Positions 4,907 to 5,377 of a stretch of 64,000 nt of DNA are shown one piece after another. Within the stretch, counting starts at the first letter, position 1. Every line of letters starts with the position of its first letter. This DNA is from Pocillopora damicornis. Its lineage: Eukaryota. The position numbers were made by a program, and so were the translations under genes. The notes beneath the pieces were generated by a model, which was not told the origin of the DNA, did not search any database, and saw only the letters and a list, made by a program, of their open reading frames with translations. The stretch is from assembly GCF_003704095.1 (NCBI RefSeq), contig NW_020846469.1, positions 1 through 64,000 of the forward strand. Direction: 5' to 3'.

Positions 4907-5377
4907 TCAAACTTTTTCCCCACGGATCCGTAGCGCCAGCTGCATATCTCGAGGCATAATAGTAACCCTACGGGCATGGAGAGCACATAGGTTCATATCA
5001 TCAAACAAACTAACGATGTATGACTCGGCCGCTTCTTGGAGCGCTAGCAAAGCTGTAGGTTGAAACCGCAAATATGGGGCAAAATTGTGCGAAATCTCAC
5101 GGACAAGGCGTTGGAAGGAGATTTTCCCTATCAACAAATTCGTATTTCTTTGGAATTTTCTGATTTCTTTCAACGCTAGGGCTCCTGGACGGTACCTCAA
5201 TCTTTTCTTTACGGGACGAGTGGTGATCAGGAGGGGTGTAATTTTCACAGGAGATATCGGAAATGTCGCGATTTCTTCATCCTCTGCTCCTTCGCGATTG
5301 AAAGGTAGGGTCTGATTTGGAAAAAATCGTTGATTTCCCACTCTGCAACCGCAGATCGTTTGTTTTATTCTAACCAT
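4907..5377 (-). CDS. Divergent histone H3 variant (156 aa, single coding exon)
   Basis: Histone fold [16 protein letters not shown]...FQRLVREI...[18 protein letters not shown]...[26 protein letters not shown]. The ATG at 5377 gives MVRIKQT (cf. H3 MARTKQT). The ORF-track GTG at 5422 directly follows a splice acceptor, implying a 5'UTR intron (about 5423-5955, donor GTAAGT). Confidence 0.9.

Follow-up and report, generated by a model that had tools for sequence, protein, structure and literature searches.

Gene structure and genomic context

The window analysed here is the whole stretch of 64,000 nucleotides from the coral Pocillopora damicornis (contig NW_020846469.1, positions 1 to 64,000). 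On its reverse strand lies an intact gene for an unusual histone H3, whose features are as follows (residues are numbered as in H3 unless given as ORF positions; L057 is an orthologue from a metagenome contig):

4907..5377, reverse strand: H3 variant, 156 aa encoded in one exon with no stop inside, single copy
5357..5374, reverse strand: N-terminal V-R-I-K4-Q-T, with K4 kept, T3 changed to I and A1 to V
5264..5356, reverse strand: variable linker (ORF aa 8-38), dN/dS 0.82 against L057, acidic and with a CxC in the window's lineage only
5231..5263, reverse strand: conserved hydrophobic motif F/L-P-I-S-P-x-K-I-T/S-x-L, containing a CDK-type S-P-x-K/R site
5201..5218, reverse strand: R33-P34-V35-K36-K37-R38, with both lysines retained but their surroundings predicted to prevent methylation of K36
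4919..5197, reverse strand: histone fold, alphaN to alpha3, identical to H3.2 and H3.3 of the same genome at 61/93 and 62/93 positions
5045..5083, reverse strand: loop 1 and start of alpha2, with K79A, T80P, S86P and T-A-L-L at 87-90
5423..5450, reverse strand: candidate 3' splice site of a 5'UTR intron (pyrimidine tract and AG)
4808..4813, reverse strand: ATTAAA, candidate poly(A) signal by sequence, past which (4808) RNA contigs run on

The 156-aa product matches the Pfam Histone family (PF00125, E 2.6e-33), and the reading frame given in a preliminary description of this DNA is confirmed. Its best solved relatives are H3.3, H3.2 and H3.1, with the match confined to residues 52-155. A protein search of the whole genome gave 12 matches from 15 candidates, one of the 12 being the variant locus; the remaining matches are 64-75% identical and represent canonical-type H3, H3.3 (L008), a further single-locus H3 (L002) or a CENP-A exon. 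Generic H3 clusters only were returned by a protein atlas search, and a single-chain AlphaFold model of the variant was discarded (pLDDT 52.9, pTM 0.24).

No histone stem-loop was found within 300 nt behind the variant's stop with three mismatches allowed, in line with the preliminary description. At two mismatches the pattern is present behind 7 of the 10 other H3 stops examined: 7 of 8 canonical-type genes match, the eighth (L006) having a similar hairpin by eye, and no match was found behind H3.3 or L002. The genes adjoining the variant are EAPP, a CS/TTL-family gene, torsin and HAD, with no histones among the neighbours. The variant thus has none of the traits of a replication-coupled H3 (stem-loop, H4 clustering, multiple copies, near-invariant sequence), and because it lacks a stem-loop and is found in poly(A)/oligo-dT libraries, the replication-independent status proposed earlier is likely. 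L002 itself (G000:C1045:155930-156238, forward strand), a single-locus H3 without a stem-loop carrying V71I, M90L and S96A, is a second, mildly changed replication-independent H3 beside H3.3.

Upstream of the variant, a repeat element occupies 6093-8116. Its direct terminal repeats are about 210 bp long (6193-6401 and 7906-8116), its inverted arms measure 53 bp, and its ORFs are decayed. On one side the element is flanked by CCGCCATTTTG near 6085 and on the other by a cluster of CACGTG/CCGGAAGT near 8140; these two flanking sites may be the separated parts of the promoter upstream of the variant. Further along the window, several near-identical ORF blocks are repeated on both strands between 42900 and 58500 (examples are 48590-49153, 49692-50333 and 51315-51977, and 42921-43922, 46470-46892 and 54663-55016). 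This is a local segmental repeat; Pfam gave no match for the two blocks tested.

A family of H3 variants in stony corals

Among the best 120 of 6833 matches in a protein search, 26 relatives of full or partial length are set apart from the canonical background. The species represented by name are Oculina patagonica, Porites lobata, P. evermanni, Acropora digitifera, A. millepora and Montipora capricornis/foliosa, and the public labels of these members are 'histone H3-like', 'H3-3-like' or none. Orthologues include XP_029198881 of A. millepora, XP_068684507 of Montipora and CAH3174835 of Porites. Family counts below use 23 rows (sequence clusters), four near-copies of the window's variant having been collapsed. 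In a profile search of 50% representatives, the top 150 were canonical-type or mis-predicted H3s except P0029, so this search is uninformative on the range outside stony corals. Several members from Acropora and Montipora (P0178, P0179, P0036, P0228 and P0240) carry a C-terminal extension, of up to 9 residues in Acropora. Several Acropora records, belonging to more than one cluster, are changed in the R-Y-R-P-G motif, a hint of duplicates or of quicker change in this genus.

A fold tree was built from 93 columns and 42 rows, with 4 of 46 rows dropped (two H3s with faulty predictions, a mis-spliced CENP-A and a nematode sequence on a long branch). Twenty-one family rows group in a clade with support 97/90, to which P0230 is sister at 93/91; in the best tree five coral CENP-As are placed apart from the family, in a separate clade (100/100). 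The fold phylogeny suggested in the preliminary description therefore separates the two groups in its best topology but leaves the origin of the family unsettled, since a tree that joins family and CENP-A in one clade is not rejected by the AU test (p 0.44).

Residue diagnostics are more informative on descent. In CENP-A, Q68 is replaced and F84 is changed to W. The family has Q68 in 23/23 rows and F84 in 21/23 (V in two, W in none), and no row has an insertion in loop 1, compared with two additional residues in coral CENP-As. The H3-length loop 1 and the retained Q68 and F84 described earlier are hence confirmed in the ORF. We also located the separate CENP-A whose presence had been proposed as a check: L013 (G000:C1291:116950-118850, reverse strand) is multi-exon. 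Its four fold exons encode F at position 68 and W at 84, with loop 1 longer by two residues, and the first of them shares 97% identity with a protein of Pocillopora verrucosa. The closest database relatives of this coral CENP-A go under the names 'histone H3, embryonic-like' or 'histone H3-like' or are listed as uncharacterized, so that coral CENP-A is mis-named in public annotation.

Coral CENP-As (the genome's own on C1291 and P0406-P0413) resemble the family in a long divergent tail, an M-V-R start, T-A-L-L and P-R-D-M(-Q-L-A); they differ in forming a separate clade, the genome's own gene is multi-exon, and Q68, F84 and loop-1 length of the variant are H3-like. The unnamed sister P0230 has an ARTKQ start, TGGVKK and K79, yet also PISPL, KITAL and a long tail. 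Its cluster (P0059/P0230, 11 members) has a 66-residue basic tail, P38 and a PISPL-x-x-KITAL motif, and is possibly an H3-like intermediate from another anthozoan group. Because of the H3-like diagnostics and the intermediate traits of P0230, descent of the family from H3 rather than from CENP-A appears more likely from the sequences. Overall, we conclude with high confidence that the variant is a genuine H3-type histone, distinct from the working CENP-A.

The histone fold

Across the clusters counted, F67, I74, Q93, E97, F104, H113, D123, L126, A127, I130 and R131 are kept in all, and C110 in 22/23; we take these residues to be H4 and H3-H3' contacts. A complex model of the variant with the H4 of its own genome scored 0.85 against 0.01 for the best control, with runs agreeing in at least 90% of contacts and a partner pLDDT of at least 71. 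The mark applied is reached by 51 of 78 solved pairs and 2 of 108 mismatched pairs. By this model the variant is predicted to pair with H4, the score attesting likeness only because H3-H4 is a solved textbook pair. Outside these contacts, R63 is lost in 17/23 rows and R128 is changed to L in 22/22, substitutions that would loosen contacts with DNA or partners.

Residues 87-90 of the variant, T-A-L-L, are neither SAVM nor AAIG. Family-wide, this segment reads x-A-L-L, with P86 and L89 in 23/23 and G90 in 0/23. The A87-A88-I89-G90 chaperone motif and the S31 context of H3.3 are absent from the family, which has R/P at 33/34. Compared with the H3.3 of its own genome, the variant is alike in lacking a stem-loop, in occupying a single locus and in having A96, and differs in residues 87-90, in the missing S31 context and in a tail that is not alignable.

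The rebuilt tail

The ORF opens with MVRIKQT, confirming the start and the retained K4 reported earlier, and the K36/K37 equivalents are ORF K57/K58; the tail is therefore 20 residues longer than that of H3, also as reported. All 17 family clusters having the N-terminal end start with [VA]-[RK]-I-K4-Q, keeping K4 and always replacing T3 by I. The T3I change removes the Haspin site and changes the context of K4, which in the variant lies in V1-R2-I3-K4.

Three further segments are conserved in family tails: G-x(0-1)-N-x-R-F, the hydrophobic motif and, at the tail end, R-P-[IV]-K-K. Within the hydrophobic motif, S-P-x-K/R is present in 21/23 clusters, with a basic residue 12-13 positions before K36. 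Since S/T-P-x-K/R is the full CDK consensus, this is a candidate CDK-type phosphorylation site. Comparison of the conserved segment by eye with the PxIxIT, PxVxL and LSPIxE motifs gave no exact fit. A tail-only search gave 11 matches, every one a family member. An intron hidden in the tail was ruled out, because orthologue tails are equally long with conserved motifs and no splice joint in the tail is among those listed in RNA contigs.

The acidic character and CxC noted in the preliminary description hold for the window's lineage and fail as a family trait. Net tail charge is +2 in the window's variant, whereas the 16 other complete tails range from +4 to +9, each with 4-7 lysines and no more than one cysteine; orthologous tails are basic. 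The earlier statement that no equivalents of K9 to K27 exist was likewise correct in part: the ARKS context is absent from all 23 family tails, but the tail is not lysine-free, as ORF K45 lies 12 residues before K36 inside the conserved S-P-x-K/R motif, where descent from K23 and from K27 are indistinguishable. With no K9 or K27 context in the family, the proposal that the variant cannot carry the K9/K27 silencing marks is supported.

K36 and the remaining modification sites

K36 is kept in 23/23 rows and K37 in 22/23, and their surroundings are altered: G33 and G34 are each found in 0/23 (P replaces G34 in 21) and P38 in 1/23. According to the available passages of the structural study of SETD2, G33-G34 threads a tunnel that fits glycines only, and its authors expect the same restriction for NSD and ASH1L (PMC4973290). 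In passages of a second study, G34 changes severely cut K36 methylation, and P38V or G34R weaken binding (PMC5335568). Coral SETD2 was identified by way of its SRI domain. Its tunnel positions, aligning with Y1604/F1606/M1607 and F1664-G1672, read Y-Y-F-M and F-D-Y-K-L-Q-R-Y-G, with L for F1668 as in NSD; a SETD2 motif pattern search gave a single match, a chance one containing a stop, which was set aside. Because G33, G34 and P38 are changed, SETD2 needs G33-G34 and the coral tunnel is intact, the variant's K36 is predicted to be shut out of SETD2/NSD-type enzymes by G33R/G34P and the loss of P38. K36 and K37 may be retained because they supply charge where DNA enters or because they serve nuclear import.

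In the fold, K56R, K79A, K115R and K122R are all present in the ORF as previously listed. K79 is kept in 0/23 rows, with T80P fixed (P80 in 23/23), and K122 in 0/22; K56 is lost in 22/23, K115 is lost in 17/22 and K64 is kept in 22/23. In view of these changes and the predicted block at K36, the earlier claim that the variant can carry active marks is not supported: given the changes at K36, K79, K122 and K56, it would come down to K4.

Transcription and transcript ends

The variant stretch is present in 18 of the 19 runs listed, with 9 on record as RNA, and in 7 of 8 runs examined low-depth contigs span the coding part entirely or for the most part. In bulk poly(A) raw reads (13.1 million records), none was found on the variant's coding part, and the last exon of the neighbouring gene was covered. 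Because presence of the gene was the ground for choosing these runs, and RNA-library contigs may include DNA, we consider transcription in bulk samples likely but low.

A 5'UTR intron had been proposed from the sequence. In its favour, beside the acceptor-like site in the window, a similar acceptor lies 23 nt upstream of the ATG in L057, and in one of the 8 runs (X13, presumed RNA) a contig forks precisely at 5424/5425. Depth drops there from 17.3 to 4.6, the pattern expected of splicing to a remote exon that ends in AG. Against it, no splice joint at 5423-5450 is among the joints listed for the 8 runs; in 6 of them contigs cross the candidate acceptor unspliced, and in one, represented by raw reads, no read lies there. 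Only one (8483) of 23 donor-like sites between 5430 and 9700 is preceded by AG, and the upstream exon of the putative intron was not located. Run X11 has a loose end at 5699 with no match in the window, likely an allele.

At the 3' side, AATAAA at 4443-4448 is a further candidate poly(A) signal. A neighbouring gene converges on the variant from the forward strand: its final exon lies at 4271-4516, with the poly(A) end at 4516, and the 3' ends of the two genes abut or overlap, with single contigs spanning both.

Selection and damaged alleles

A degenerate pattern scan of metagenome contigs returned 119 loci, of which 118 were chance matches and one, L057, a true orthologue on a contig of 2 kb that is too short for synteny. 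By the Nei-Gojobori method, dS against L057 is 1.57 and dN 0.23, a ratio of 0.14 from one pair near saturation. The fold alone gives 0.09, compared with the high value in the linker, and in residues 1-7 and 39-58 synonymous sites are saturated, with pN of 0 and 0.16. The dN/dS comparison that had been suggested as a check is therefore far from 1 for this pair and, with the existence of orthologues, speaks against a long-dead pseudogene.

Within the window's lineage, the coding part diverges from the window by 0.2-0.9% versus 1.7-2.9% for the flanks, lower in 5/5 RNA contig sets counted (Fisher p 0.001-0.09). All 6 coding substitutions among those listed for RNA contigs are non-synonymous, some at invariant sites (Q68, E97), which has p 0.19 under neutrality and 0.0008 at a dN/dS of 0.14. 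One RNA contig carries a frameshift in the coding part, low-depth contigs being subject to sequence errors. The 32 near-identical protein records examined include 4 with shifted C-termini and 2 with a 4-aa deletion in alpha3, a set biased to changed, error-prone sequences, with clusters listing changed sequences only. Porites records have many substitutions too, plus two shifted records. Given these non-synonymous, frameshifted and shifted alleles, selection may be weak in the window's lineage; we infer a functional gene under weak present-day selection, as for a rarely expressed gene.

Discussion

The explanation that we favour, at about even confidence, is a conserved single-copy replacement H3 of stony corals, separate from CENP-A, refractory to marks and probably used in the germline. 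Such a variant would replace normal H3 outside S phase, probably in germ cells, supplied independently of S phase from a poly(A) message and loaded by a route that does not read the G90 of H3.3. Its nucleosomes would take almost none of the standard H3 marks and, through the changes at R63 and R128, would grip DNA somewhat more loosely. The single S-P-x-K/R site could act as a cell-cycle kinase switch for loading or eviction, and use in spermatogenesis or meiosis would clear marks before repackaging. Germ-cell use is probable by analogy and from the absence in bulk raw reads: tissue-specific H3 variants are often spermatogenic (PMC8015243, available passages), and the H3t proteins of Oikopleura testis are likewise changed at and around K79 (PMC3156773, available passages).

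The same mark-poor replacement histone could instead serve somatic or embryonic cells (cleavage stages, stem cells or quiescent cells). Contigs in bulk poly(A) libraries of several studies speak for this use, which we regard as unlikely: the variant was undetected in the one raw-read set, an A. millepora developmental paper, in its available part, omits it among maternal and zygotic histones, and a high load of damaging alleles would fit a rarely used gene.

Something keeps K4 (17/17), K36 and K37, and a variant devoted to activity, methylated at K4 and K36 and not at K9/K27, would account for it. We find this quite improbable with G33/G34 gone throughout, P38 gone in 22/23 and the SETD2 tunnel intact, with K79, K122 and mostly K56 lost, and with T3I changing the context of K4.

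Decay in the window's lineage of a once-functional coral variant would explain the purely non-synonymous substitutions, the frameshift alleles in close relatives, the lowest tail charge of the family and the repeat element inserted upstream. It is hardly probable in our view, as the window's copy and most relatives are intact and the coding part diverges less than its flanks; the damaged records come from clusters of changed sequences only and from error-carrying low-depth contigs, and Porites shows a similar pattern.

Very unlikely, finally, is a second, germline centromeric histone derived as an intronless CENP-A duplicate, to which the AU test, the shared motifs, the long unalignable tail and the lack of coding introns, as in a retrocopy, would lend themselves, but against which stand Q68, F84 and loop 1, a fold 66% identical to H3 (versus 45-47% overall to full coral CENP-As), a K-Q-T start as in H3 and the H3-like intermediate P0230.

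The replacement H3 that we favour has partial counterparts, described here from the available passages of each source. The lineage-specific H3t.1-H3t.3 of Oikopleura dioica also change at or around K79, and H3t.3 is likewise an orphan intronless gene without a good stem-loop; it has 3 tail and 10 fold changes, compared with 32 changes in 93 fold positions in the coral variant (PMC3156773). The coral tail, unlike that of Oikopleura H3t, is wholly rebuilt and 18-24 aa longer, and no orthology is implied. Sperm H3.10 of Arabidopsis is also a replacement H3 escaping K27 methylation by sequence; it is H3.3-like and altered near a retained K27 (PMC8015243), whereas the coral variant has no K9/K27 context and, unlike H3.10, is predicted to escape K36 and K79 methylation too. 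H3 G34R/V/W oncohistones share a bulky residue 34 beside an intact K36, although G34P itself is not among the changes named in the oncohistone passages (PMC4973290, PMC5335568). In the corals selection has fixed the change throughout the family (P in 21/23), and G33 and P38 are altered as well. Among cnidarians, Hydractinia echinata has germ-cell H2B variants with SPKK/SPKR motifs, different from the single S-P-hydrophobic-K/R of the coral motif, and its H3 genes are given as H3.1, two H3.3 and CENP-A, with no such H3 (PMC5011920).

No description of the coral variant was found in the literature by topic or by orthologue accession, with subscription journals mostly outside the scope of the search. 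In their available passages, PMC8889044 deals with canonical histones only and says that Pocillopora variant diversity should be investigated, PMC12924552 discusses canonical H3 and H2A.X, PMC12005167 mentions an expanded H3 orthogroup with no detail, and PMC12153100 mentions an annelid h3uv1, unexplained. A Euphyllia gonad study names gonadal H2A and H2B and not H3 in the passages available (PMC7579821), and four H3 terms had 0 matches in its 11 supplements. The coral H3 lineage is thus real, conserved and apparently undescribed, and of a known kind, that of lineage-specific replacement H3s.

A bolder reading, which we offer tentatively and think somewhat unlikely, is that this H3 has been kept since before the two main lineages of stony corals split and acts as a universal eraser. 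K9, K27, K36, K56, K79 and K122 would be lacking or blocked, an oncohistone-like G34 change would be the normal state, one kinase-controlled motif would stand in place of a modification code, and chromatin would be reset as gametes form from long-lived clonal tissue.

Animal H3 variants other than the centromeric ones usually carry only a few changes relative to H3. If borne out, the family, with a tail rebuilt yet conserved in motifs of its own, would be a third long-lived H3 class in stony corals, shared by robust and complex corals, and a naturally occurring example of a bulky residue fixed at G34. The variant would escape standard antibodies against the H3 tail, and it would offer a testable handle on the germ-line wiping of histone marks in corals, which bears on claims of inherited epigenetic acclimation.
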